64,000 bases of DNA from Candidatus Woesearchaeota archaeon (GTDB lineage Archaea; Nanobdellota; Nanobdellia; Woesearchaeales; JAGVYF01): the NCBI GenBank assembly GCA_041650315.1, contig JBAZLJ010000001.1, positions 280,259 through 344,258 on the forward strand. Direction: 5' to 3'. The notes under the pieces are model-generated. The model did not search any database. It was not told the DNA's origin and saw nothing but the letters and a program-made list of their open reading frames with translations. Position 1 is the stretch's first letter. Each line of letters starts with the position of its first letter. The translations under genes were made by a program, and so were the position numbers. Positions 1 through 51,170 of this stretch are shown in pieces.

Positions 1-152
1 AAGATCAATGAGTTTCTTTCTAGTGGCTTCATCTATGATTGCCTGAGCAGTTGCTGCCATACTCTAAATTGAGGCATCTCAAGTTTATATGGCTTTCTAA
101 GTGGCATATTGTGATAGATATATGCAGTATATGTATTACATACACGTAAAAA

Positions 153-394
153 GGGCGTGTCCAGAATGCTTGTTGATACAAGCCAATGTCGTACAAGAAC
201 TGCTTTGCAGTTCTGTGCACAGGAGTACTTAGTACTCCTTGTGCCTCACATCTATTTCTTTAATATAATCTGCAGAATAGATTCTGCTAATTATTTGTAG
301 ATTAAGTATGTTCAGTATAGACATTGGTTCTGTCAGAGCTGAAGCTCTGAGTATGCTCAAAGCCGTAGCTTTGACACATTCTGGACACGTCCCG
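153..394. mobile_element. MITE-like non-autonomous element, copy A (~241 bp). Terminal inverted repeats are GGGCGTGTCCAGAATG (153-168) and CATTCTGGACACGTCCC (377-393); it is flanked by TAAAAA on both sides (147-152 and 395-400). No ORF of its own.
   Basis: Ends are near-perfect reverse complements (16/17). Internal sequence is shared with 50886-51026 and 9339-9397. The six-frame ORFs 29..220(-) and 229..420(-) lie inside or across it and look spurious. Confidence 0.6.
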
Positions 395-461
395 TAAAAA
401 CAAATATTTTTAAACTGCATTTGCTAGAATAGTACTAGTTATCTTATAATAATACAAAAAG

Positions 462-1052
462 GTGAAATTCATGAAAAAAGAAATACTTCCTCCAAGCTTT
501 GGAGATGATTTGGTTTTAGGTTTGAAATATCCATGGAATCATGCCAAAAGGCAATGGAATATCCTTTGGGCATTAATCCCTATATTCGGTTGGTTCGCTT
601 TAGTCGGTTACGGCAAGAAAATCATACTTGAATTGGTTGCCGGTAGAAGAGAAGGGCTTCCTGCGTTCGGAGATTTCTGGAAGAACTTCCAGGAAGGAGT
701 CATGATATTCATATTCATGATCCCTACATTCTTGGCGATTGGATTCCTTAATGTGATTCCTATAGTAGGCAAATTGATAGCGTTTTTAGCGCATGCTTTC
801 CTTATGCCATGGTTGACAATCAATTTCATGGTCAAAGGCAAATTCGAGGCATTGTGGGAATTAGAGAAAGCATATAATGTAGTGTTCGGTAATGTGAAAG
901 AATATCTAGTGTTCCTTTTACAATCTGCGATATTCTGCACAGTGTATTGGTTTGCAAGCATGCTTTTGGTGGGCATACCTGGACTAGCGTTCGGCCATAT
1001 GTATTTCTTCACGCAGTTCTATCAAAAGCATCAGCTTAAACTGAAAAAATGA
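462..1052 (+). CDS. Hypothetical polytopic membrane protein
   Basis: 196 aa with several hydrophobic helices (e.g. ILWALIPIFGWFALVGY, VMIFIFMIPTFLAIGFL). No recognisable catalytic motif. Confidence 0.45.
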   Translation: MKFMKKEILPPSFGDDLVLGLKYPWNHAKRQWNILWALIPIFGWFALVGYGKKIILELVAGRREGLPAFGDFWKNFQEGVMIFIFMIPTFLAIGFLNVIPIVGKLIAFLAHAFLMPWLTINFMVKGKFEALWELEKAYNVVFGNVKEYLVFLLQSAIFCTVYWFASMLLVGIPGLAFGHMYFFTQFYQKHQLKLKK

Positions 1053-1306
1053 GGAAGTTAATCTCTTTTTTTCTTCTTTTTGTTTTAGTTCTTTTTTCTG
1101 GTTGCGGTGATGTTGTTGACGAGAAATCATGTTCTATTGATACAGATTGCGCATGCGGACGGCATGTTGTCTCCGGCGACTGCTTTTTCGGGAATTCTGC
1201 GTTCGTTGATGTGTCTGAGCAGTGCCCTGATTATTGTACGGGGATAGCTGCGCAATTCGCTATACAATGCGTAGATAAGAAGTGTGAACAAGTACGGATT
1301 AGATAA
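1049..1306 (+). CDS. Small Cys-rich lipoprotein-like secreted protein
   Basis: Start overlaps the upstream stop (ATGA). Signal peptide plus lipobox-like LFSGC. About 11 Cys in the mature ~65 aa. Confidence 0.35.
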   Translation: MRKLISFFLLFVLVLFSGCGDVVDEKSCSIDTDCACGRHVVSGDCFFGNSAFVDVSEQCPDYCTGIAAQFAIQCVDKKCEQVRIR

Positions 1307-1318
1307 ACATATTTTTCT

Positions 1319-2050
1319 TCAAAAGAATAATGTCATCAATACCGCGAGAATAATCATATTGCCAAAGTCTGCGATTGATGTTGTGATAGGTATCAAGAAG
1401 TTGTTAGGGTCTTCTTCATTCTGGAATAGTATTAATCCGCCTATAACTGATACTAAGAATAAAATTGTTATCAACACTCCTGTATCTATGAGCGCAATCA
1501 TCATGATCTTTATGCTGTATTCAAGGTTCATGCCATGGCCGGAATAATCCGATATCAATAATGCAAGCCCTCCGCTCATGGCTGCAGTAATCATCGATAT
1601 CAAGAACATCTGCAGGAACATTTTAACAAGGCCCTTTCTCCAAAATTCAGAATCTACTTTTTTCTGATGCAGCAATGTAGAGAATCTTGAAGAGATGACT
1701 GTTCCGTAGCTTCCGATCATGTTGTTCAAAGTTGGGAACATGATGACCAACGGCATTATCTCCATGAACAATACTTTTATTTCTTCTAATGCAAGTCCAC
1801 CAAGAGAGCTCAATAGGCAAGCAAATGCTAATATACCTATACTTTCCATGATTATGACTTTGATTATATGCGAATGAGGGCCATATTCCTTAATGTAGAA
1901 TAATGTTTTTTTAGAAATGTTATATTTGGTGTGGACTTTGTTCAGGATAGGGTGGTGCTTATGTCTTTTTATCTTAGTCACATTAAGAATATGTTTCTGG
2001 AAAAGCCTTTTCTTTTCGTAGTTCCAAAGATGATTATAGTATTCTTTCAT
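1319..2050 (-). CDS. MgtE/SLC41-type divalent cation transporter membrane domain protein (no cytosolic N-domain/CBS domains)
   Basis: C-terminal helix carries the MgtE signature EDPNNFLIPITTSIADFGN (D-P-[DN]-N...P..T...D..G). Five or more TM helices. Confidence 0.55.
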   Translation of the reverse strand: MKEYYNHLWNYEKKRLFQKHILNVTKIKRHKHHPILNKVHTKYNISKKTLFYIKEYGPHSHIIKVIIMESIGILAFACLLSSLGGLALEEIKVLFMEIMPLVIMFPTLNNMIGSYGTVISSRFSTLLHQKKVDSEFWRKGLVKMFLQMFLISMITAAMSGGLALLISDYSGHGMNLEYSIKIMMIALIDTGVLITILFLVSVIGGLILFQNEEDPNNFLIPITTSIADFGNMIILAVLMTLFF

Positions 2051-2051
2051 T

Positions 2052-2594
2052 TTATAAGATTAATAATGCGACCAATAATGATAGTATGCCCACCACATCG
2101 CCAACTGCTGTTATAAACGGCCCTATTATGTTGTTAGGGTCATGGCCTTTCTTGAAAAGATATAATATAGATACGAGCGTTAATGGAATTTCGATACCAT
2201 TCGATATGATTCCGGCTATCAATGGTATGATTATGATTGTGGGATAGTATAATCCCATCAAGTAATAATTGAATGTGAATGCTATCAATCCTAGCATAAT
2301 AGATACTAAGATTCCTAGGAGGAATGAGGCTATAATATTTCCTTTGATTATCTTGGTCTTCATTCGGTTAGGTTTTATTATATGCAGGAATAGTCCCGAA
2401 GTTATTCTTGATGAGAAAGACCCAGCTATGTTGTTGCGCATTTCCAAGAAACCTGGAATCATTATGAGCATGCCAGGGATTATAAGAAGATTATCTTCAT
2501 ATATGGCTAATATAGTGCCAGCTATAATTCCGCCTATTATGCTGAACATCTGAGTGCCTAATATTTCAGTGAAATCTTTATCAAAAAATGCCAT
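2052..2594 (-). CDS. MgtE/SLC41-type divalent cation transporter membrane domain protein (paralog of the gene immediately downstream)
   Basis: GHDPNNIIGPFITAVGDVVGI signature in the last helix. Polytopic. Only a 1-bp gap to the neighbouring MgtE-TM gene. Confidence 0.55.
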   Translation of the reverse strand: MAFFDKDFTEILGTQMFSIIGGIIAGTILAIYEDNLLIIPGMLIMIPGFLEMRNNIAGSFSSRITSGLFLHIIKPNRMKTKIIKGNIIASFLLGILVSIMLGLIAFTFNYYLMGLYYPTIIIIPLIAGIISNGIEIPLTLVSILYLFKKGHDPNNIIGPFITAVGDVVGILSLLVALLIL

Positions 2595-2749
2595 CTGTAA
2601 ATATACTGAATTCTATAATATATTAATGTTTTGAATATGCATATTGATTTTATTGATTACAAATATTTATATATTGAAACTGCCTGAATTTAGATGTATT
2701 AATAACATAATATAACATAATATATTATAATTATAGGGTGTGATAGAAT

Positions 2750-3100
2750 ATGCCAAAAACAATAATGGTTGTTGATGATGAGCCGGATATCCGCGCTACA
2801 GTAAAAACAGTTCTTGAGAAGAATGGTTTCAAAGTCATTACCGCAGTAAATGGCGATGATTGCCTTGATAAGCTGAAGAAAGAGAAACCTGATCTGATAC
2901 TTCTTGACATAATGATGCCGGGGACTCCTGTCAAAGAGATTGTGCCTAAGATTAAGGGCAAAATCGCATATCTGACTGTTGTCAGAGTGACTGAAGCGGA
3001 GAAAGAGCAACTTTTGAAAAATAAGAATATAGTAGATTTCATACAGAAGCCTTTCGATATCAAAGACTTAGTGAAAAGAGTGACTAAATTAACTTCATGA
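2750..3100 (+). CDS. Stand-alone response regulator receiver (CheY-like REC) domain protein
   Basis: MVVDDEPDIR...LILLDIMMPG...K. Conserved acidic pocket (DD), phospho-acceptor Asp in LLDIMMP, and conserved Lys. 116 aa. Confidence 0.85.
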   Translation: MPKTIMVVDDEPDIRATVKTVLEKNGFKVITAVNGDDCLDKLKKEKPDLILLDIMMPGTPVKEIVPKIKGKIAYLTVVRVTEAEKEQLLKNKNIVDFIQKPFDIKDLVKRVTKLTS

Positions 3101-3639
3101 GATTGGTTGAAATGGATATTACTAAAGAATTGAAGGACAATCAGGTTGTGCTTTTGCTAGTTGAGGGATTGGAGTACAATGATCTTTCTTTGAAAGTGGC
3201 TAAAGAACTTTTCGGCAAGAAAGTGTGCTATGTGACTCTGAACAAGACGTGCCCTTCGATTATCGAGAACTTTTCGAAAGCGAATATAAAAACTAAGGGT
3301 GTGACGTTTGTTGATGCAATTTCCAAAACTATTACCGGCAGGCCTAAGGCAGTTGACTCTTGCATGTATCTCAGTTCGCCAGGAGCATTGACTGAGTTGT
3401 CAATAGCAATCACTGAATTCATAAGGGAAGGATATGATTATATCATCTTTGATTCATTGACTAATTTGCTGATATACCAGGGCAAAGGGCCTGTCGCTAA
3501 ATTCGTCGCTAATCTGATCACTAAGATAAAAGCCAGCAAGACTCGCGCTGTGTTTTATGCACTTAAAGTCGATCAGCATCAAGAGCTTATACAGGAAGCG
3601 TCCATGTTTGTAGATAAAGTTGTGGATGCGAGCAAATAA
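3097..3639 (+). CDS. KaiC/RecA-fold (COG0467-like) protein with degenerate Walker A
   Basis: Start overlaps the REC gene stop (ATGA). The layout VVLLLVEGLEYNDL...DYIIFDSLTNLL resembles the KaiC/RadA-like core, but the GxxxxGK[ST] P-loop is replaced by EGLEYNDL. Family call is by pattern only. Confidence 0.4.
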   Translation: MRLVEMDITKELKDNQVVLLLVEGLEYNDLSLKVAKELFGKKVCYVTLNKTCPSIIENFSKANIKTKGVTFVDAISKTITGRPKAVDSCMYLSSPGALTELSIAITEFIREGYDYIIFDSLTNLLIYQGKGPVAKFVANLITKIKASKTRAVFYALKVDQHQELIQEASMFVDKVVDASK

Positions 3640-3691
3640 TCTCAATCATATCAGTATCGGGAAAGATTTTGTTTCCCATAATCAGTTTAAC

Positions 3692-5866
3692 ATGAAAGAG
3701 CAACCGAAAAAAGAGGGAGTTGATTCAAGTAGGTCTTTTTCTAGATTTTATTTCAGCAAATTGAATATTAAATTATTCATGATAGCTTTCATGTTTTTAA
3801 TTCTCGCAATATCTTCTTTTGGGATAGTCATCTATTATGTGGTCATTGATTCATTGAGTTTTCAGATACAATCTGAATTAGAATTGGCGGCCACTTTGAC
3901 TTCCAATCATGTAATAACCTATTTCGATGAAAAGACTGAGCTTATCAAGCTGATAACCAGTAGAACGCAGTTGAGGCGGGATTTGAATAATTATATTTCT
4001 GCTCCGAATCAGGATTTATACAATGAGATTGTGCTAAAACTTAAGGATTCTAAAGGGTCGATTGAGGAAATACAAAATCTTTGCTTCATCAATATGGGAG
4101 GCATTGTAGATGCCTGCAGTGATAATAGTATCACCGGAACTGATTTTTCTCAAGAAAGATTTTTTTCACAAGGCAAAATTTCAGAAGGCAGTTATTTCTT
4201 TAAAAATTCAGGCAATTGGAATATTGTGATTTCCGGTCCGATATATGAAAATAATCAGATATTGGGCGTCGTAATAGTAGTGTATGGTTTGCAAGAGCTT
4301 GGTGATATCATCACAGAAAGAGCTGGATTAGGGGAGACTGGTGAAGTATTGATTGCATTCAATGATAATAATGGGCAGACCATATATCCTTTGCCAAGGC
4401 GTTTTGAGAATGATGCGGTATCTATGAATTTTGTGGGATTACCGATGCAAGCTGCTCTAAATAAAGAATCTACTTTTTTTAAGAAAACCTATGATTACAG
4501 GGATGTGCAGGTGATTGCGGCTACTAAATATATTGACAGCGTTAAATTAGGATTGGTATCAAAAATAGATTATGCTGAAGCCATTCTGCCGGTACGTGAC
4601 AGACTTATTATTCTTTTCGTCAGAGTTAGCTTAATCTTAGTTCTGGTCTTGACATTGCTTTTCTTTTTAATATCTCTACGTATAATTAAACCTATACATG
4701 AGTTGATATCCGCTGCTGAAAGGTTGAAGAACAATGATTTCAAAGTTCATTTGAATATCAAGACTGATGATGAGCTTGAGCAGTTAGCGGGGACTTTTAA
4801 TACTACTGCAGAGATACTTGATAATCTTGAGAATGAAAGAAAACAGATTGATAAGGCGAAGACTGAGTTCTTGTCAATCACGTCGCATGAATTGCGAAGT
4901 CCGATGACGCCGATGAGGGCGCAATTGCAAATGGTGCTCGGTGATTATTTCGGGAAACTTAATGCTGAACAGAGGAATGCGCTTGAGATTGTGCTGAACA
5001 ATACTGAACGTCTTGACAAGATAATCGTCGATTTCCTTGAGATCTCGCGTATTGAGGCTGCTCGTTTGAAATTCAATTTCGTGAAAGCTGATTTAACTAA
5101 AATGATAAATCTTGTTGTTGAAGAAGTTAAATCATTTATGCCTGAGAAGAAACTTCGGATTGAGTTGGATGTCGGCAGATTGCCCATTATTGAATGCGAT
5201 CCTGACCGTGTATCACAAGTACTGCGTAATCTTTTGACAAATTCTATTAAATTCTCGCATCAGAACGGGCGTGTTTTAGTGTCTGTGAAGCACACAGATG
5301 GAATGATTCAGTTTAGCGTGAAAGATGAGGGTGTAGGCATATCCGAGAAAGATCAGAAGCATCTTTTCGAGCCGTTCTTCCAAGTCGAGAATATGTATCA
5401 GCATAAATCCGGCGGTACTGGTCTAGGGCTTGCTATCTGTAAGGGCATTGTAGAGAGTCAGAACGGGAGGATTTGGCTTGTTTCTCAAGAAGGCAAAGGA
5501 ACTGTTTTTAATTTCACTGTGCCGTTGAAACCAGTGCATGAGATTAAGGCCATAAAGATTTTGTTCTCGAACGGACAGAAGACGGATGAGCTCGTCAAAA
5601 ATTTATTTATTGAATATATCGGGCCATTAGGTGAACGTGAATTCGAGGAATTGCAGAAAAGCAAAGGGATTACTTATGAATCTGTGCATCAATATATATC
5701 GGATTTAGCCAAGAAAGGAATACTTATGAAAGAGAATTCCGAAGAATTTAAAAGCAAGATTGCTATGGTATTTGGCAGAGAAGAAAAAGAGGTTAAGAAA
5801 TTGAAAAAGAAAGAGAGATTGACTTTGCCTCAACAGGAGGTAGCTGAGTTTTTCAGCAAAAACTAA
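3692..5866 (+). CDS. Sensor histidine kinase: N-terminal TM, extracytoplasmic Cache-like sensor, second TM, HAMP, HisKA (H-box ITSHELRSP), HATPase_c (GGTGLGLAICKGIVE), plus an extra C-terminal ~115 aa module
   Basis: H-box SHELRSPMTPM. N-box LRNLLTNSIKFS. G-boxes DEGVGI and GGTGLGL. Two TM segments flank a ~270 aa periplasmic-type domain. The ORF is open from 3620 (MWMRANN...) but ATG 3692 (MKEQPKKEG) avoids overlap with the upstream gene. Confidence 0.85.
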   Translation: MKEQPKKEGVDSSRSFSRFYFSKLNIKLFMIAFMFLILAISSFGIVIYYVVIDSLSFQIQSELELAATLTSNHVITYFDEKTELIKLITSRTQLRRDLNNYISAPNQDLYNEIVLKLKDSKGSIEEIQNLCFINMGGIVDACSDNSITGTDFSQERFFSQGKISEGSYFFKNSGNWNIVISGPIYENNQILGVVIVVYGLQELGDIITERAGLGETGEVLIAFNDNNGQTIYPLPRRFENDAVSMNFVGLPMQAALNKESTFFKKTYDYRDVQVIAATKYIDSVKLGLVSKIDYAEAILPVRDRLIILFVRVSLILVLVLTLLFFLISLRIIKPIHELISAAERLKNNDFKVHLNIKTDDELEQLAGTFNTTAEILDNLENERKQIDKAKTEFLSITSHELRSPMTPMRAQLQMVLGDYFGKLNAEQRNALEIVLNNTERLDKIIVDFLEISRIEAARLKFNFVKADLTKMINLVVEEVKSFMPEKKLRIELDVGRLPIIECDPDRVSQVLRNLLTNSIKFSHQNGRVLVSVKHTDGMIQFSVKDEGVGISEKDQKHLFEPFFQVENMYQHKSGGTGLGLAICKGIVESQNGRIWLVSQEGKGTVFNFTVPLKPVHEIKAIKILFSNGQKTDELVKNLFIEYIGPLGEREFEELQKSKGITYESVHQYISDLAKKGILMKENSEEFKSKIAMVFGREEKEVKKLKKKERLTLPQQEVAEFFSKN

Positions 5867-6618
5867 TGGCAGAATTATCATTATATTTAGCTAATCTAAC
5901 AGGTATATTCTCTATAATCACAGCTATACTAGGGATACGCCTTATTCTGGCTATTCTTTCTAAGAAGAAGAGTCCTATCCAAAGAACAATTCATATCATA
6001 TTTGGATTATTAGTGATAAGTTTTATATCATGGGCTTCAGCTGAGACGATATGGGCAATTTTATCTATTATGGGAATAGATCCGGCATTCGGAATTGCCG
6101 AATACTTTTATTTATTCGGTTATTTATGCTCCGCAATAGCTTTAATCTATTTCGCTAAAATAAATCTTTCCCATTCAGCTTTTGAAGAGATTTTCTCAGT
6201 TTCTGTAATCGGTGGCTTGTTCATATTATTCGCGTTATTCTCAGTAAACTTTGTAGTCTCGGGTTATGTGGAGAAATTGCCGGCATTAGAGATGTTTCTA
6301 AGCTATTTTTATCCAATAGGTAGCGCTATTTTATTTGCGCTTTCTTCAACTGTGTATATTTTCTTTCGTAAGATAAAAATTATTGAGATACCATTGATTC
6401 TCATAGCTGCGGGATACATATTCAATTTTGTAGGGGATCTTGGATATACATATTATTCATTGAGAGAAATTTATGGCACAATAGGCATAATTTCAGATAT
6501 TTGTTTTATGATTCAATATCTTTTAGTAGCTAAGGCATTCTGCTTATTAATATCATCATTATCAAATGGAAATTGCGGATTCAATATAAAATCAAAGACT
6601 AAAAATGAAACAGAATGA
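5866..6618 (+). CDS. Hypothetical 7-TM integral membrane protein (possible sensor-associated membrane module)
   Basis: 250 aa and almost entirely hydrophobic helices. Start overlaps the kinase stop; its own stop overlaps the next gene's start. Confidence 0.4.
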   Translation: MAELSLYLANLTGIFSIITAILGIRLILAILSKKKSPIQRTIHIIFGLLVISFISWASAETIWAILSIMGIDPAFGIAEYFYLFGYLCSAIALIYFAKINLSHSAFEEIFSVSVIGGLFILFALFSVNFVVSGYVEKLPALEMFLSYFYPIGSAILFALSSTVYIFFRKIKIIEIPLILIAAGYIFNFVGDLGYTYYSLREIYGTIGIISDICFMIQYLLVAKAFCLLISSLSNGNCGFNIKSKTKNETE

Positions 6619-8899
6619 ACAAATAATCGGCGGATTGATTGGGATTGTTTTTGTCGCAGCTATCTTAGTTATGATTGGATGGATATTCGGAGTAGATACT
6701 CTAAAAAGCATTGTTCCCGGTTTCGTGACAATGAAGTTCTCCACAGCAGTCGCGTTCTTAATAGTGGGATTAATATTGCTGGGAATGTCAAATTTATTAG
6801 ATATATCTTATTTGTATAAAGGCGTATTTTTCTTTTCAACACTATTATTGATATTCATGGGATATATGCTGGTAACTTCTCTATTGGGTTTAACTAGCGG
6901 CATCGAAAATCTAGTTGTGGAAGAAGCAGCAGGTGCATTGAAAACCAGCAAGCCCGGCATGCCTTCGGCAGCGACCATGCTTAATTTCGTTCTTATCGCA
7001 GTCGCTGGACTGATTTCATTATCTTCATATAAACAGAAGGGATTCAGAATAATTTCTGTGATTGTCGGATTATTGGGTGTAAGCAGTGTGCTAGGATATA
7101 TCTCAAACAGCCCTTCATTGTATTTCTATATCGAAGGGATTAGCTCTGCGATGGCGCTTCATACGGCTTTCTTATTCGTGTTCATAGGGATTGCCATATA
7201 TCTTCTTTCAGGACTAGTTTCTGAGAAAAATAATATACAGATAGGCACTGAGATTTTCTTAGGGTTCTTTTCAATTGTAGTATTGATGGTATTCATGATA
7301 GGATTGAGCTCTCAGATCAATACTCAGAGGCTTGAGAATACTCAGATGATAAGGGATGTCGAAGCTCCTTTGGAACTGATGGTTGAACAAGTCAGGGGGT
7401 ATGATGCCATACTCACTAGTGCTGCACACGAATCTTTATTGCATGCACAAAAAGGCGAATTCAATTATGCTAGGCAGCATAAAGTCAAATATGATGAAAC
7501 CAGCGCTAAATTGGATACCCTTCTTAAGTTCAATGCCCCAAAGCTGCTTGCAAAAAGTTTTAGACCGCAGATTGATAAGGATAAAGTAATCGAGATATTG
7601 AATGAACTGGATATTGTGAATATTGAATTGGTTGATTTAGAGATGCGTGCATTTGAAGCTATCGAGAATAAGGACACCGAATCGGCATATTCATTGATTG
7701 TTTCTGAACAATACTCTGAATCTAAGGAAAGGCTTGTTAATTTATACAATGAATGGGTAGCAATTGAAATAAGAACGACTTCTGAGCTTAGAGCTAAGAT
7801 TATAGATGAATCCAATCAGTTAGATTCGCTTAATTTTTATTTTTCAATAATTGTAGTGATATTCGCATTGATATTCTCGATATTCATGACATTGTCTTTA
7901 ACCAGGCCTATCAAAAGATTGGAAAATGAAGTGATTGAGATATCTAAAGGAAAACTGGATCTGCAACTTAGTAAAAGCAATCTTGAAGAAGTGCAAAATT
8001 TATCTGATTCATTGAGCAGGATATTGGCTACCATGAAGCTTGCTGTACTTAGGACCGGACTAACTAAAGCTGAACTTGGTTTTGAGGAAATTGTGAAGGC
8101 GAAGGAAGAAATTGAAAAAAAATATAAGATATTGTTTGACGTTTCTCAGGATGCGATTATGACTATTGCGCCGCCTAAATGGAATTTCACTTCTGGAAAT
8201 CCTGCGACTTTGAAAATGTTTAACATCAATAGTGAGAAGCAGTTGGCATTATTGAATCCAGCAGAATTATCTCCTGAAAGGCAACCTGATGGCCAGCTTT
8301 CATCAGCAAAAGCTAAAAAGATGATTGATATTGCCGTGAAAAAAGGTTCTAATTTCTTTGAATGGACGCATAAGAGATACAAAGGCGAGAATTTCGCAGC
8401 CAATGTTTTGTTGAGCAAAGTCAATGAGGACGGGGAAACCTATCTCCAAGCTACTGTGAGAGATTTATCTAATACAATAATCGGAGAACAGAAATTTAAA
8501 ATACTCATAGAGAGTATGGATGATGCAGTTTATTTGCACGGATTTGAACCTGACGGAAAGCCTACTAATTTCATCGATGTCAATTCTGCGGCATGCAAGA
8601 GGATGGGTTATACTCGCGCAGAATTCCTTAAGATGAGTCCTATGAAATTGGATTCGCCTAAAGGTGCAAAGAACATACCTAAAATAATGAAAATTTTGTT
8701 ATCCACTGGCAAAGCATTGTTTGAAGGAGAGCATATCACTAAGAAAGGTAAGACAATACCTGTCGAGATAAATAGCAGTATCTTGAATATCGCAGGGAAG
8801 AAGTATGTGCTTTCTATCGCGAGAGACATCTCTGGGCGTAAATCCGGCGGATATATCAAGCTGAATACTAACGGAAGAACTGAAAAGTATATGATGTGA
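6605..8899 (+). CDS. Membrane-bound PAS sensor protein: ~7 TM N-terminal domain, HAMP-like linker, two PAS domains, no kinase/MCP/GGDEF output
   Basis: TM region extends to ~aa 235. A second TM lies at ~aa 400, followed by RPIKRLENEVIEISKGKLDLQ (HAMP-like). PAS-like blocks are KYKILFDVSQDAIMTIAP... and KFKILIESMDDAVYLHGFEPDG...KRMGYTRAEFLKM. No H-box or ATPase motifs. Confidence 0.6.
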   Translation: MKQNEQIIGGLIGIVFVAAILVMIGWIFGVDTLKSIVPGFVTMKFSTAVAFLIVGLILLGMSNLLDISYLYKGVFFFSTLLLIFMGYMLVTSLLGLTSGIENLVVEEAAGALKTSKPGMPSAATMLNFVLIAVAGLISLSSYKQKGFRIISVIVGLLGVSSVLGYISNSPSLYFYIEGISSAMALHTAFLFVFIGIAIYLLSGLVSEKNNIQIGTEIFLGFFSIVVLMVFMIGLSSQINTQRLENTQMIRDVEAPLELMVEQVRGYDAILTSAAHESLLHAQKGEFNYARQHKVKYDETSAKLDTLLKFNAPKLLAKSFRPQIDKDKVIEILNELDIVNIELVDLEMRAFEAIENKDTESAYSLIVSEQYSESKERLVNLYNEWVAIEIRTTSELRAKIIDESNQLDSLNFYFSIIVVIFALIFSIFMTLSLTRPIKRLENEVIEISKGKLDLQLSKSNLEEVQNLSDSLSRILATMKLAVLRTGLTKAELGFEEIVKAKEEIEKKYKILFDVSQDAIMTIAPPKWNFTSGNPATLKMFNINSEKQLALLNPAELSPERQPDGQLSSAKAKKMIDIAVKKGSNFFEWTHKRYKGENFAANVLLSKVNEDGETYLQATVRDLSNTIIGEQKFKILIESMDDAVYLHGFEPDGKPTNFIDVNSAACKRMGYTRAEFLKMSPMKLDSPKGAKNIPKIMKILLSTGKALFEGEHITKKGKTIPVEINSSILNIAGKKYVLSIARDISGRKSGGYIKLNTNGRTEKYMM

Positions 8900-8903
8900 T
8901 AAT

Positions 8904-9305
8904 ATGAAGAAGATAATATGGACTACTAAACTCGCAATCGGAATTGATGAAATAGATAATCAGCATAAGCAATTCATCAAGATATTGAACACTTGCTGTA
9001 CTCCCAAAAACATAGATTCACAGAAATTGAAAGAAATCTTTTCCGAATTGATTGAATTCGTAAGGGTTCATTTTTCTACAGAAGAAAAATATTTCGAGAA
9101 ATGGGAATATCCCTATGCTCAAGAGCATATGATTGAGCATGAAAAACTGATAATAAATACGTTGAAATACCAGATGAAGTTTGAGAAGATTGGGGGTAAA
9201 GTTGTCCCTGAACTTTTGAAATTCTTGGAAGATTGGTTTGAGAATCATTTGAAGAAGCATGATTTCAAATACAGGGATTATTTTATAGAGAAAGGTTTCA
9301 TTTAG
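8904..9305 (+). CDS. Hemerythrin-like (HHE cation-binding domain) protein
   Basis: W.....GI..ID.QH...F, then H(x3)E ... HF..EE..F ... H..EH ... H...D. This is the hemerythrin His/Glu/Asp ligand pattern. 133 aa, 4 bp after the PAS gene. Confidence 0.8.
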   Translation: MKKIIWTTKLAIGIDEIDNQHKQFIKILNTCCTPKNIDSQKLKEIFSELIEFVRVHFSTEEKYFEKWEYPYAQEHMIEHEKLIINTLKYQMKFEKIGGKVVPELLKFLEDWFENHLKKHDFKYRDYFIEKGFI

Positions 9306-9338
9306 TTCTGATGGGCTCTGTAGAAAATCTCGTTATCA

Positions 9339-9397
9339 CACAAGAACTGCTATGCAGTTCTGTGCACAGAAGCACTTTGTGCTTCTTGTGCTCGCCA
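9339..9397. repeat. Partial copy of the MITE internal module: two adjacent palindromic hairpins (GAACTGC-WW-GCAGTTC, then GAAGCAC-TTT-GTGCTTC)
   Basis: Matches 193-248 of the element at 153-394. The first palindrome is identical. The second has complementary changes on both arms (GGAGTACT/AGTACTCC becomes GAAGCAC/GTGCTTC). No TIRs here. Confidence 0.55.
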
Positions 9398-9605
9398 CCA
9401 ACAGCAATTTGACCTTGCTAGGTCAATTCTCAAATAATGTTTGAGAAAATGTTGCTATTTCAAAAGTGAGGGTGCTATATCGTCATAGACTTCTATAACG
9501 CACTTGATGTTAGAATTGAGAACATTTTGAGAAGGTTGGTGGACTTTTCTACAAAGCCATTCTGATACAAAGTCTTATAAATAATCTATATTCTCTAGTA
9601 GCTAT

Positions 9606-10829
9606 ATGGCAACTAAATCAAAATCTCATAAATGTGAATTGTTAGCGCCAGCTGGAAATCGCGAAATGCTTGTTGCGGCTATTGATGCAGGATGCGATTC
9701 AGTATATTTCGGCGTGAAGTCGTTCAATATGAGAGTGAATGCCGGCAATTTCTCGGTTTCTGAACTTCCTGATGTTGTTAAATATTGTCATGCGCATAAA
9801 GTAAAAGCTTACTTGACTCTGAATTCTATCATATACGATAATGAGCTTGCTGAGCTTGATACTGTTTTGAAAGCTGCGAAATCTGCTAAGATTGATGCAA
9901 TCATATGTTGGGACATGTCTGTGCTCAGATTGGCGCAGAAATACAAATTGGATGTTCATCTTTCTACGCAGGCTTCTGTCAGTAATTTTGAAGCTGTTGA
10001 ATATTATGCGAAGTTGGGGGTTAAACGTATTATCTTGGCTAGGGAGCTATCGCTTTCACAGATTAAGTCTATAACTGACCAGATTATTAAACGTAAACTT
10101 AACGTTTCAATCGAGACTTTTGTTCACGGCGCGATGTGCGTTGCGGTTTCTGGACGTTGCTTTACATCGCAGTTTTTATTCAAGCGTTCTGCTAATCGCG
10201 GGGACTGCCTTCAACCATGCAGGCGCGCGTATAAAGTCACGGATATGGAGACTGGCGGAGAAGTAAAACTTGACAATAATTATGTCATGTCTGCTAAGGA
10301 TCTATGTGCGCTGCCATTCATTGATAAATTGAAGGATGCGGGGATATCTGCGTTTAAGATCGAGGGCAGATGCAGAAGTCCTGAATATGTGAAGGTTGTT
10401 ATTTCTGCGTATAGGAAAGCGATTGATAATGCGCTGAGTGAAGTTCAGAAGAAGGAATTGATTGCTAAGCTGAAGAGTGTATATAATCGGAAGTTTTCAT
10501 CTGGTTTCTATCTTGGTCTTCCTACAAATGATGATTTCACTGATATTTATGGAAGCGCTGCTACTTACGTTAAGGAGTATATCGGCTATGTATGCAATTT
10601 CTACAGCAAAATAAATGTGGCAGAAGTTAATATAGAATCTAACGGACTTAAGGTTGGCGATCATCTGATGATAATCGGGCCTACAACCGGTGTAAAAGAG
10701 CAGAAGCTGTCATCCATTGAGATAAACCATCACAAGATAAAATCTGCGAAAAAAGGCAGGCATATCGCTGTTAAACTGAATTTCTTAGCGAGAATCAATG
10801 ACAAAGTATTTGTGATAAGAAAAGCGTAG
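9606..10829 (+). CDS. Peptidase U32 family protein (collagenase-like; the family includes the RNA hydroxylation enzymes RlhA/TrhP)
   Basis: N-terminal ELLAPAGN...AI.AGADAVY signature and a Cys-rich central region (CVAVSGRCF...GDCLQPCRR). 407 aa. Confidence 0.75.
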   Translation: MATKSKSHKCELLAPAGNREMLVAAIDAGCDSVYFGVKSFNMRVNAGNFSVSELPDVVKYCHAHKVKAYLTLNSIIYDNELAELDTVLKAAKSAKIDAIICWDMSVLRLAQKYKLDVHLSTQASVSNFEAVEYYAKLGVKRIILARELSLSQIKSITDQIIKRKLNVSIETFVHGAMCVAVSGRCFTSQFLFKRSANRGDCLQPCRRAYKVTDMETGGEVKLDNNYVMSAKDLCALPFIDKLKDAGISAFKIEGRCRSPEYVKVVISAYRKAIDNALSEVQKKELIAKLKSVYNRKFSSGFYLGLPTNDDFTDIYGSAATYVKEYIGYVCNFYSKINVAEVNIESNGLKVGDHLMIIGPTTGVKEQKLSSIEINHHKIKSAKKGRHIAVKLNFLARINDKVFVIRKA

Positions 10830-18482: not shown

Positions 18483-19510
18483 AAGAGGCGGAATTGGGAT
18501 TGAGCTGGTACATAATGGGCAGCGCTCTATTCATGCTGCTTGTTCTGGAGTTCACTTTCGGCGCATTTACAGGGATGACTCAGCTTTTCAAATTGTTTGT
18601 TATCGCTGCCATTACTCTTTTTGTTATCATTCAATCTGCTAATTACGCTGTTGGAGCTATATCGAGCTATGCCAAGACGACTGGCATATCTGATTATCTT
18701 ATCGGTTTCTTGGTAGTATCAATTGGAACGACTTTCCCAGACATAAGCACATCAATATTCGCATCTATCGCTAATCAGGGTTCGCTTGTATTGGGTGAAG
18801 TTTTAGGGGCTAGTATTTTTAGCCTGACATTTGTTTTAGGGTTCATGGCGATAATCGGTGGCAAGGTCAAGATCGATAAATCAATCCAAAAGACTCTGGC
18901 CTTGATACTGACTCTTAGCATGTTCGCGATTATGCTGGGCATTGACGGAATCTATTCGCGCGTAGATGGTTTTGTTCTCTTGACTATTTTCTTGATATAT
19001 GTTTTTATAATGGTGTGGAAAGAAGGTCAGACTGGCAAACTCAAGAAAAGTGTACCTTTCAAATTCTTGTGGACTGATATTGTTGTTTTCGGTGGAGCTT
19101 TATCTGCACTGCTTCTTAGCGCGAGATGGCTTGTGATCACTTCGAGTCAGATTGCCGAGATATTGGAAGTGCCTAGCTTTTTCATAGGGCTTGTTCTGGT
19201 CGCTATCGGGAATACTGTTCCTGAGTTTCTTGTCAGCATAAAAGCTTTGCTTGAAGGTGCAATGGATATAAGCATAGGCAATCTTGTCGGCAGTATAATC
19301 CTTAATTTCTATCTCGTATTAGGTATAGCTGCTGCGGTCGCTCCTATTTATGTTGAGTATTATAGTTTTATGATAAGCGCTTGGCTTTTATTATTCCTTT
19401 TGGCTACTGTGCTTGTGTTCAGCAGCAGGAAAGCCATTAACAGATGGCAAGGATTCTTTTACCTGTTAGCATATGTTATTTTCGTATACGCTCAAATCAA
19501 GGTGATGTAG
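18470..19510 (+). CDS. Na+/Ca2+ exchanger (CaCA family, YrbG-like)
   Basis: Two alpha-repeats, GTTFPDISTSIFAS and GNTVPEFLVSI. About 10 TM. Start overlaps the ATPase stop. Confidence 0.85.
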   Translation: MAELKEAELGLSWYIMGSALFMLLVLEFTFGAFTGMTQLFKLFVIAAITLFVIIQSANYAVGAISSYAKTTGISDYLIGFLVVSIGTTFPDISTSIFASIANQGSLVLGEVLGASIFSLTFVLGFMAIIGGKVKIDKSIQKTLALILTLSMFAIMLGIDGIYSRVDGFVLLTIFLIYVFIMVWKEGQTGKLKKSVPFKFLWTDIVVFGGALSALLLSARWLVITSSQIAEILEVPSFFIGLVLVAIGNTVPEFLVSIKALLEGAMDISIGNLVGSIILNFYLVLGIAAAVAPIYVEYYSFMISAWLLLFLLATVLVFSSRKAINRWQGFFYLLAYVIFVYAQIKVM

Positions 19511-25830: not shown

Positions 25831-25904
25831 TTCTCTTTGTCAAACTAAACCTTTATATATATGCACTACTTTTCGTATATATACAAATATTCGTGTGATT
25901 AAAT

Positions 25905-26063
25905 ATGGCAACATTCACAGTGTCAATACCTGAAGATCTAAAGAAACAGATAGATATGCACCCAGAGATAAATTGGGCGGAATACCTTAAGCAAAGATTT
26001 GAATTACGCCTTAATGAGCTTCATAGATTCGAACAGATGAAAGCTTCAGGGGGACTGAAATGA
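25905..26063 (+). CDS. Small ribbon-helix-helix protein (52 aa; not in the supplied ORF track)
   Basis: MATFTVSIPEDLKKQIDMH... has the classic RHH N-terminal strand. The stop overlaps the next start (ATGA). Confidence 0.45.
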   Translation: MATFTVSIPEDLKKQIDMHPEINWAEYLKQRFELRLNELHRFEQMKASGGLK

Positions 26064-26347
26064 CTTCTTTGACATTATCTCTTTCTGAAGAAATGAAAAA
26101 TCAGTTGAAAGCCTATTCTTGGGTAAATTGGAGCGAGATTGCTAGGGAAGAAGCTTTGAAGAAGTTGATATTCGAGAATTATCTCAAAGCGGGAACAATC
26201 ACTGATGAAGAATGGGAATTCTGCGAAAAAATGGATTGGCATCCTACTGATGAACTTCCGTTGAAAAAAGAGTTTGCTGACAAGTTGAAATCCGTCAGAA
26301 AAGAAAAATCTATTAAAGTCAAGTCAGTTTCCAACATATTCAAATGA
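26060..26347 (+). CDS. Putative antitoxin (RHH-like N-terminus) of a RelE/ParE toxin-antitoxin pair
   Basis: MTSLTLSLSEEMKNQLK... Its 3' end overlaps the toxin start (ATGA at 26344). Confidence 0.5.
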   Translation: MTSLTLSLSEEMKNQLKAYSWVNWSEIAREEALKKLIFENYLKAGTITDEEWEFCEKMDWHPTDELPLKKEFADKLKSVRKEKSIKVKSVSNIFK

Positions 26348-26613
26348 ATTATGCATTGGAAATAAAACCTTCTTGCCAGGATCAAATTCGTAAATTGTGC
26401 AGGAAGAATGCTTCTTTTGAACTAATCTTGAAGAAAAAGATTGAAGAGATATTATCTGATCCATATCATTTCAAGCCGTTGAGGTATGGTCTTGCTGGAG
26501 AAAGAAGGGTGCATATCATGAAAAGTTTTGTTCTTAAATATGAAATTGATGAGTCTAGAAAGATAGTCACTTTGCTGTTCTTCGGACATCATGATGATGC
26601 TTATCAGAGATAA
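26344..26613 (+). CDS. RelE/ParE-family type II toxin
   Basis: KPLRYGLAGERRVHIMKSFVLKYEIDESRKIVTLLFFGHHDDAY matches the RelE/ParE consensus (L.G.L.G.R..HI...YRiiY.id....i.iL.igHR.d.Y). Confidence 0.7.
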   Translation: MNYALEIKPSCQDQIRKLCRKNASFELILKKKIEEILSDPYHFKPLRYGLAGERRVHIMKSFVLKYEIDESRKIVTLLFFGHHDDAYQR

Positions 26614-50827: not shown

Positions 50828-50885
50828 AGAGATTTACTTGGTTTTTATAAAGCTAACTTCGGATTTTTCATTAAATTCTCTATCG

Positions 50886-51026
50886 GGCGCGTCCAGAATT
50901 CTCGTTTCACTCGATCAATGCCATCTCACATCTACTTCTTTTCATCTATCTTCAGAATGGATTCTGCTAATTATCTGTACATGTAGTATGTTCAGTATAG
51001 GCATTGGTACCATTCTGGACATACTC
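50886..51026. mobile_element. MITE-like element copy B (shorter and degenerate): TIRs GGGCGCGTCCAGAATT / CATTCTGGACATACTC
   Basis: The interior aligns with 241-340 of copy A (CACATCTACTTCTTT...GATTCTGCTAATTATCTGTA...GTATGTTCAGTATAGGCATTGGT). It lacks the double-hairpin module. Confidence 0.55.
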
Positions 51027-51170
51027 TTCTCTACCCAAACCTTTATAAATAACCTGTTGAAGCTATATGTTTAACAATATAACTCAATTCTTAGGTGAAA
51101 TCACTGCCAAGAGAGCTCTATATTGTGTATTCACATTTATTTTGTATATTATAGGGGAAAATAAGGAGAA

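Follow-up and report, generated by a model that had tools for sequence, protein, structure and literature searches.

A hairpin pair that stands inside a MITE near the start of the DNA analysed here (a stretch of 64,000 nucleotides from a Woesearchaeota genome, hereafter the window) recurs elsewhere in the same window with both arms of one hairpin altered, which raises the question of what is being conserved: a structured RNA, a site on DNA, a working part of the MITE or an element in its own right. The recurrence, noticed in the first-pass annotation, is real. Positions 193-244 and 9340-9391 align without gaps at 88% identity across 52 nt, the 30-nt core ACAAGAACTGCTWTGCAGTTCTGTGCACAG occurs exactly twice as against 0.00 expected from 100 shuffles, and the covariance-model check, run on the 64-kb window with a model of the whole family, finds just these two copies, the next match having E = 0.58. 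Seven differences separate the copies: four make up two compensatory changes, one from G-C to A-T and one from T-A to C-G; two fall in loops; and one is a C-to-T change at 192 in copy 1 producing a T.G pair (the family base at this position is C, as it also is in a third copy of the same genome, that of MITE4). When seven substitutions were placed at random, pairing was kept equally well in 5.8e-4 of 1,000,000 trials, so that the earlier reading of the arm changes as preserving pairing is borne out by the two copies themselves (P about 6e-4). Some details had to be corrected. The loop of the first hairpin, given as 2 nt, actually has 3 nt (TTT or TAT), and a pattern with a 2-nt loop matches neither copy. 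The second hairpin was drawn correctly for copy 2 (GAAGCAC-TTT-GTGCTTC), but the single-T loop proposed for copy 1 is better replaced by GGAGTAC-TTA-GTACTCC (7 bp, 3-nt loop). Both copies lie where they had been reported (193-248 and 9339-9397), but their borders move, the full 52-nt module comprising 192-243 and 9339-9390 (Table 1).

Below its stem, each hairpin of the two window copies runs on into a conserved foot that bears a single bulged base. The module consists of two imperfect palindromes joined tail to tail in inverted orientation with zero spacer, forming a strict dyad: unit 1 reads C-N-C-A-A-G, stem, loop, stem, C-T-G-N'-G, and unit 2 mirrors it as C-N-C-A-G, stem, loop, stem, C-T-T-G-N'-G. 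The foot is thus C-N-C-A-(bulged A)-G paired with C-T-G-N'-G, the bulged base being an A on the 5' arm of unit 1 and a T on the 3' arm of unit 2, and above it stands a stem of 4-8 bp which nearly always is perfectly Watson-Crick paired and which is topped by a free loop. The framework CACAAG..CTGTGCACAG..CTTGTG is a perfect palindrome and reads the same on either strand. As single-stranded DNA, each window copy folds on either strand into two adjacent hairpins of -17.3 to -18.4 kcal/mol, with z-scores against shuffles of -4.2 to -5.8 for both copies. Across lineages of 32% to 62% GC the foot and its bulge are kept while the stems are wholly replaced, with invariant columns confined to the paired foot and the centre (CAAG..CTG.GC.CAG..CTTG); the loops show no conservation, units of 22-31 nt carry one bulged base each, and the distance between conserved blocks varies by about 9 nt. 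All 37 units found sit in inverted pairs: 36 were detected as a plus unit directly before a minus unit, and the partner of the remaining one (L031:715-764) shares the central CG and was hence missed by the unit scan. Single units were absent from every locus scanned (0.1 expected by chance), for which reason a full-length element bounded by single units was rejected. A different fold, with an outer stem of CACAAG paired to CTTGTG closing a three-way junction, was considered as well; two of the three informative variants (L008b and L008c) fit two hairpins and one (L010b) fits the outer stem. The foot columns 2/28 and 31/59 covary within each unit (A-T, G-C, C-G), and therefore two hairpins are favoured over the outer stem.

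Table 1 Coordinates of module copies, of MITEs of the host family and of the composite repeat (window positions unless a locus is named)
Feature	Position	Strand	Sequence or remarks
Module copy 1	192-243	not assigned	model R1: 63.6 bits on +, 52.7 on -
Module copy 1, unit 1	192-217		TACAAG-AACTGC-TTT-GCAGTT-CTGTG
Module copy 1, unit 2	218-243		CACAG-GAGTAC-TTA-GTACTC-CTTGTG
Module copy 2	9339-9390	not assigned	model R1: 67.8 bits on +, 63.2 on -
Module copy 2, unit 1	9339-9364		CACAAG-AACTGC-TAT-GCAGTT-CTGTG
Module copy 2, unit 2	9365-9390		CACAG-AAGCAC-TTT-GTGCTT-CTTGTG
MITE1, host of copy 1	153-393	+	TIRs GGGCGTGTCCAGAATG / CATTCTGGACACGTCCC; module at position B, after GCCAATGTCGT
MITE2, host of copy 2	9313-9559	+	247 bp; TIRs GGGCTCTGTAGAAAA / TTTTCTACAAAGCC; module at position A
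MITE3, same family	50883-51026	+	no module at A or B; TCTCGTTTCA^CTCGATCAATGCCAT^CTCACATC
Further members of the MITE family	L042:~18749-18940; L032:~2660-2850		
Composite repeat (about 94 nt)	L006:~640-735; L008:~395-485; L010:~4060-4150		

The relation between the module and its hosts proved different from what had been assumed. The second copy was said to have no TIRs, which is wrong: its flanks align with the family of MITE1, and it lies inside MITE2, a diverged 247-bp member of that family with inverted ends, a 7-bp target duplication (TTCTGAT at 9306-9312 and 9560-9566) and an empty site in the related strains L044 and L045, which in its place carry an uninterrupted CATTTAG-TTCTGAT-ACAAAG within the 46-nt spacer between a hemerythrin and a peptidase gene. 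MITE1 is likewise flanked by a 7-bp target duplication (GTAAAAA at 146-152 and 394-400); the more distant strain L049 has the empty site, with ATATAAAAA joined directly to CAAATATTTTT, and the closer L046 an identical filled site. The family as a whole comprises elements of 142-247 bp that end in TIRs of the type GGGCGTGTCCAGAATG and duplicate 7 bp of their target, and it is polymorphic between strains. It includes MITE3, which contains no module and, judged by eye, is flanked by the duplication TTCTCTA (50876-50882 and 51027-51033), as well as MITE4, which lies 6.5 kb past the end of the window and holds the third module of this genome; a transposase matching the family was not seen. With this low density (three copies in about 94 kb) and all three inside MITEs, the recent spread of the module in the window genome is explained by the MITE and not by the module.

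The module's independence of the MITE, which the first-pass annotation had deduced from the supposed lack of TIRs, nevertheless stands on other evidence, namely two insertion positions within one MITE family, the module-free MITE3 and the unrelated contexts in other lineages. In MITE1 and MITE4 the module occupies position B, following GCCAATGTCG, and in MITE2 and the L032 MITE it occupies position A, preceding (C)TCGCCA and about 20 nt nearer to the 5' TIR. Module sequences are 85-90% identical between MITEs whose other sequence is 50-75% identical, and the hosts found in different lineages are unrelated to one another. The module begins cleanly at C1 and ends cleanly at G60, and target duplications are absent from its flanks at position A, at position B or in other contexts. 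It should be noted that the case for independent insertion is built on these two positions and on the differing contexts elsewhere, no filled and empty pair for the module itself having been seen at an otherwise identical site. Two further hairpin pairs were observed in the same MITEs. At 329-376 (plus strand), MITE1 also contains another insert of two hairpins, unrelated to the module, in which TCAGAGC-tga-aGCTCTGA precedes TCAAAGC-cgt-aGCTTTGA, a direct copy that differs by one compensatory pair; this insert is missing from MITE3 and the L032 MITE, has no other copy in the sequence searched and, while similar in kind, lies outside the module family. In MITE2, a third kind of hairpin pair directly follows the module (9409-9447; TTGACC-ttgcta-GGTCAA, then TTCTCAAA-taatg-TTTGAGAA) and has an 82% identical counterpart in an ordinary intergenic spacer elsewhere in the genome (L042:16236-16275; L043:8285-8324). 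The MITEs of the window genome look like mosaics of hairpin modules.

How far the module extends beyond this genome was approached with pattern scans that demanded the palindromic framework and therefore yield a sample biased to canonical members. A framework-only pattern, run against one genome per prokaryotic species, returned nine loci: five, distributed over four MAGs of Candidatus Woesearchaeota, all form perfect hairpins in each of the two variable slots, and the other four (L003, L004, L007 and L009, from bacteria and a Thermoproteota MAG) are without hairpins and were taken as chance matches. The same kind of pattern gave 28 loci in metagenomes with a bimodal outcome, 11 of them having perfect hairpins of 4-7 bp in both slots and 17 having 0-1 bp; the latter are in line with the roughly 25 chance matches that we estimated by hand and were again taken as such. 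Viral contigs gave no match to the pattern. A search with the centre only, together with the covariance model R1, added diverged copies, in which the foot positions N and N' change together (for example, CGCAAG..CTGCG and CCCAAG..CTGGG). As far as these scans show, the module family is specific to Woesearchaeota, the lineage of the window itself, whose thermosome, ThrRS and other proteins are listed at NCBI as woesearchaeotal. Some MAG loci contain two or three modules per 8 kb.

Eighteen aligned copies from different lineages were scored on the two-hairpin structure (22 pairs, 379 cells), and the result is far clearer than the window pair by itself. Standard pairs are formed in 98.4% of the cells (71.3% after shuffling), 97 cells are changed on both sides (29.5 after shuffling) and the covariation score is 0.619 (0.133 after shuffling); for all three, the observed value exceeds that of every one of 500 shuffles. 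Both sides have changed in 14 of the 22 pairs. Only two of the 379 cells are changed on one side, both to G.U, a count that is to be read with the membership filter in mind, which counted Watson-Crick pairs at the stem base and may hide a few copies containing G.T. Sliding the partners by 1-3 columns lowers pairing to 26-47%, and RNAalifold, unaided, predicts the same two hairpins. The proposal that secondary structure is under selection, as opposed to neutral decay, is thereby supported. The two strands of each copy score within a few bits of one another under model R1, the most diverged copies excepted.

No module copy is coding, and the sites occupied are ones that tolerate insertions: spacers between genes, MITEs, the leader of a tRNA and tRNA introns. 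One of the tRNA contexts is a tRNA-Val(TAC) gene (L008:1400-1726, minus strand, JACPTF010000017.1) with two introns, a canonical one of 49 nt at 37/38 and one of 206 nt at T-loop position 59/60, the latter containing many hairpins, two modules included. This intron shows, by eye, a relaxed bulge-helix-bulge with a UUCG/CGAA helix and the bulges AA|C and AG|U, and ARAGORN finds the tRNA only after in-silico removal of the 206-nt insert. A tRNA-like gene of L031 has one module at the 5' margin of a T-loop intron of 74 nt (629-702) with a relaxed bulge-helix-bulge and another in its 3' acceptor strand. In L005, L034 and L031 modules begin exactly at T-loop position 59/60. Three tRNA-like sequences without a visible 5' acceptor strand were observed at these loci (L031:560-775, L005:2010-2140 and L034:1115-1235): that of L031 is of class II, with anticodon arm, long variable arm and encoded CCA, and in L005 and L034 just the 3' half is visible. 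Possible explanations are splitting of the tRNA gene, additional introns that escaped detection, or what an integrated element has left behind. A composite repeat of about 94 nt, with the module in its centre and ATAAGG / CCTTAT as inverted repeats on the outside, is shared by three GC-rich Woesearchaeota MAGs at 85-89% identity and in L008 lies about 25 nt upstream of an intron-bearing tRNA-Gly(GCC) gene. In L002 (4395-4681, minus strand), a module-bearing insert of about 165 nt follows a tRNA gene and is bounded by the tRNA 3'-end repeat TAGGAGCATTTTT, as if a small element had integrated at the tRNA 3' end. ARAGORN detects no tRNA in the window.

Taken together, we give about an even chance to the reading that the module is a short non-autonomous palindromic selfish DNA element, comparable in kind to REP doublets (BIME/REPIN) or to mitochondrial double-hairpin elements. 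The main rival is a structured RNA, either a small RNA or a cis-acting element of leaders, introns and 3' UTRs, whose hairpins would be selected at the RNA level, for example for protein binding or stabilisation. Strong covariation is what such an RNA would leave behind, several copies certainly are transcribed, since they sit in tRNA introns or a tRNA leader, copy 2 begins 34 nt past the hemerythrin stop codon, and tRNA-linked copies, as read by eye, usually have the longer hairpin first in the direction of transcription. We consider it unlikely all the same: an RNA needs neither a perfectly palindromic framework nor equal scores on both strands, G.U is nearly absent despite the 97 double changes, the loops are unconserved, and copies also lie inside MITEs and in introns that are discarded. 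Rfam likewise gave no match at the gathering score over the whole window or with E up to 1 over positions 1-10000, and at permissive E values the ten module-bearing loci contain one genuine tRNA far from the modules, all else being weak, unrelated matches at chance level. Watson-Crick-only pairing, the palindromic framework and the equal strand scores together argue for hairpins on both DNA strands, so that the sequence comparison points to DNA hairpins rather than RNA and the alternative left by the first-pass annotation, RNA or a cruciform protein-binding site, leans to its DNA side. Alternatively, the module might be a cis-element of the host acting on duplex or cruciform DNA, for instance by binding a nucleoid protein or one that serves topology or recombination, or by stopping transcription in both directions, in analogy with roles proposed for bacterial REP/BIME. 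The framework kept over deep divergence, the intergenic locations and the T runs after some copies (L008:1584, L010:2805) would suit such a function; the few and sporadic copies, their strain-specific presence through MITE insertion and the many copies in MITEs or tRNA introns, places in which a function for the host is difficult to imagine, make it quite unlikely, and a spacing between blocks that varies by about 9 nt speaks against plain-duplex recognition.

Also quite unlikely, in our opinion, is that the module is a functional internal part of MITEs or MITE-like elements, for example a site of binding or bending during transposition, without mobility of its own. All three copies of the window genome and the L032 copy do lie in one MITE family, the composite repeat of the GC-rich MAGs places the module between outer inverted repeats, and the L002 insert is flanked by tRNA 3'-end repeats. 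MITE3, however, has the same TIRs and an apparent 7-bp duplication without any module, which therefore is not required, and the two different internal positions, the unrelated host elements across lineages and the copies that sit directly in a tRNA T-loop or intron, with no such host around them, are at odds with a fixed part. Insertion at T-loop position 59/60, seen at three loci and in the T-loop intron of the L008 tRNA-Val, recalls instead an archaeal bulge-helix-bulge intron or its relic, moving at the RNA level and cut by the tRNA splicing endonuclease. This we regard as very improbable. At the borders of the module, a scripted search for the 4-bp helix and its two 3-nt bulges revealed no consistent motif in 17 contexts on both strands, the relaxed motifs of L031 (by scan) and L008 (by eye) bound longer introns that merely contain the module, and L005 and L034 lack a visible 5' tRNA half; after in-silico excision of the module, ARAGORN finds no tRNA in these or other cases, save on removing the whole L008 intron. 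Chance similarity or neutral decay of a duplicated segment, finally, could draw on there being only two copies in the window, but its probability is practically negligible, refuted as it is by the core count, the covariation of 18 copies, the paired units, the substitution test and the bimodal metagenome scan.

Read as a selfish DNA element, the module comes closest in its manner of working to a bacterial REP heterodimer, and in appearance to the mitochondrial double-hairpin elements. Bacterial REP dimers include heterodimers with 1-2 bp spacers, complementary stem changes and insertion into palindromes and genes (PMC3733652), and REP/BIME/REPIN sequences in general share with the module imperfect palindromic units of 20-30 nt with a bulge, inverted pairing, extragenic position, complementary stem changes within families and insertion into existing palindromes or other repeats (PMC3733652, PMC3116915). 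A REP unit measures about 20-40 nt, a range that includes the 22-31 nt of the module units. REP units carry a GTAG or CGTC tag at one end (PMC3733652), whereas the module has neither and conserves the paired foot CNCA(A)G/CTGN'G instead. It also differs in having no spacer and no single units, in stems that are much more variable between lineages, and apparently in a far lower copy number in the sequence available, with three copies in about 94 kb of the window genome; REPs have tens to hundreds of extragenic copies per genome. REPs further have a cognate RAYT gene, usually flanked by repeats, of which there is none in the Pfam records of window and flanks or among ten neighbouring ORFs of the module. 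RAYTs have been reported from bacteria only, and from Archaea only IS200-type Y1 transposases (PMC6006769). The mitochondrial double-hairpin or repetitive hairpin-forming elements of fungi and sponges likewise combine two adjacent hairpins into one small mobile unit, lie in spacers, introns and variable parts of RNA genes, show complementary substitutions and have no known enzyme (PMC2800124). They belong to organelle genomes, have no sequence relationship to the module and are without a reported conserved palindromic framework and bulged foot, both of which the module has.

Single-stranded DNA elements and integron sites offer further points of comparison. In the IS200/IS605 family both hairpins have the same orientation on one strand, while those of the module are mirror images, and the whole module is only 50 nt long. 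The ends of IS200/IS605 elements and of their miniature derivatives (PATEs) have subterminal hairpins that are recognised as single-stranded DNA, as those of the module may be, and these elements insert without duplicating the target, 3' of a short sequence specific to them. At the module, too, no duplication is seen, and the A-A-R flank, a post hoc observation described below, might be the equivalent of that short sequence. Integron attC sites conserve structure and not sequence, have a conserved stem base and extrahelical bases, and are recognised as folded single-stranded DNA. The module is similar in favouring structure over sequence and in its conserved stem base and extrahelical bases, but an attC site is one long hairpin with R''/L'' and L'/R' boxes located beside cassettes and IntI, and the module is two short hairpins containing no GTTRRRY core; a cassette array is lacking, and the Pfam records of the window include no integrase. 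A MITE, for its part, is defined by TIRs and a target duplication, and the framework of the module is an inverted repeat without such duplication (7 bp in the host MITEs). Occurrence of the IS200/IS605 family in Archaea is documented (PMC6006769). Small palindromic repeats such as REPs have been well studied in bacteria and organelles and hardly described in Archaea, and a literature search found neither an archaeal counterpart of this palindromic repeat nor a report of its motif, so that this element apparently has been undescribed in archaea so far.

If the module is indeed mobile DNA, its hairpins would form on single-stranded or cruciform DNA of either strand and would serve as substrate of a structure-specific enzyme acting in trans, which would read the foot and the bulge but not the stem sequence. 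By analogy with REP-RAYT and IS200/IS605, a nuclease of the HUH/Y1 type is a candidate. That changes are compensatory and G.T pairs nearly absent could then follow from the need to fold on both strands, an effect to which templated correction within the hairpin might add. Landing may be preferred 3' of A-A-R and in or beside existing hairpins. Of 17 independent contexts, 9 have AAR directly 5' of the module on one of its sides (2.2 expected, the test being post hoc), in GC-rich copies the AAR side always adjoins the longer hairpin (read by eye from the same data), and several insertions lie in or beside existing hairpins, for example in a T-arm or between palindromic flanks. Transposase-type Pfam families were absent from the genes called over about 60 of the 64 kb of the window (up to 19.3 kb and from 23.2 kb on) and its flanks, and from ten ORFs adjoining modules at other loci. 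A small ParE-toxin / ribbon-helix-helix pair, with weak Pfam records, was observed at about 25900-26600 of the window (L050:17639-18347) amid housekeeping genes.

A bolder proposal, which we put forward as rather doubtful, is that this 50-nt mirror-image hairpin pair represents an unrecognised class of structure-defined mobile DNA, moved or copied as single-stranded DNA by an archaeal enzyme reading the 5-bp bulged foot and colonising hairpin loops, including tRNA T-loops and introns. Should this be true, some of the tRNA introns of Woesearchaeota, with their unusually large size and odd positions, could have arisen in this way. Modules in tRNA introns and T-loops of archaea with tiny genomes bear in any case on the question of how archaeal tRNA genes become interrupted, and the simple symmetric rule of a conserved foot, one bulge and a free stem, together with clean covariation restricted to Watson-Crick pairs, gives a good handle for the recognising protein. 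General caution should also be taken in annotation, as covariation in hairpins of Woesearchaeota genomes need not imply an RNA gene. Hairpins of other kinds can surround the module, too: in L014 (300-600), the spacer around it is a dense run of different perfect hairpins, among them the unit-like CACGAG-AAAATTAC-ttag-GTAATTTT-CTGTG, in which a G replaces the neighbour of the bulged A.
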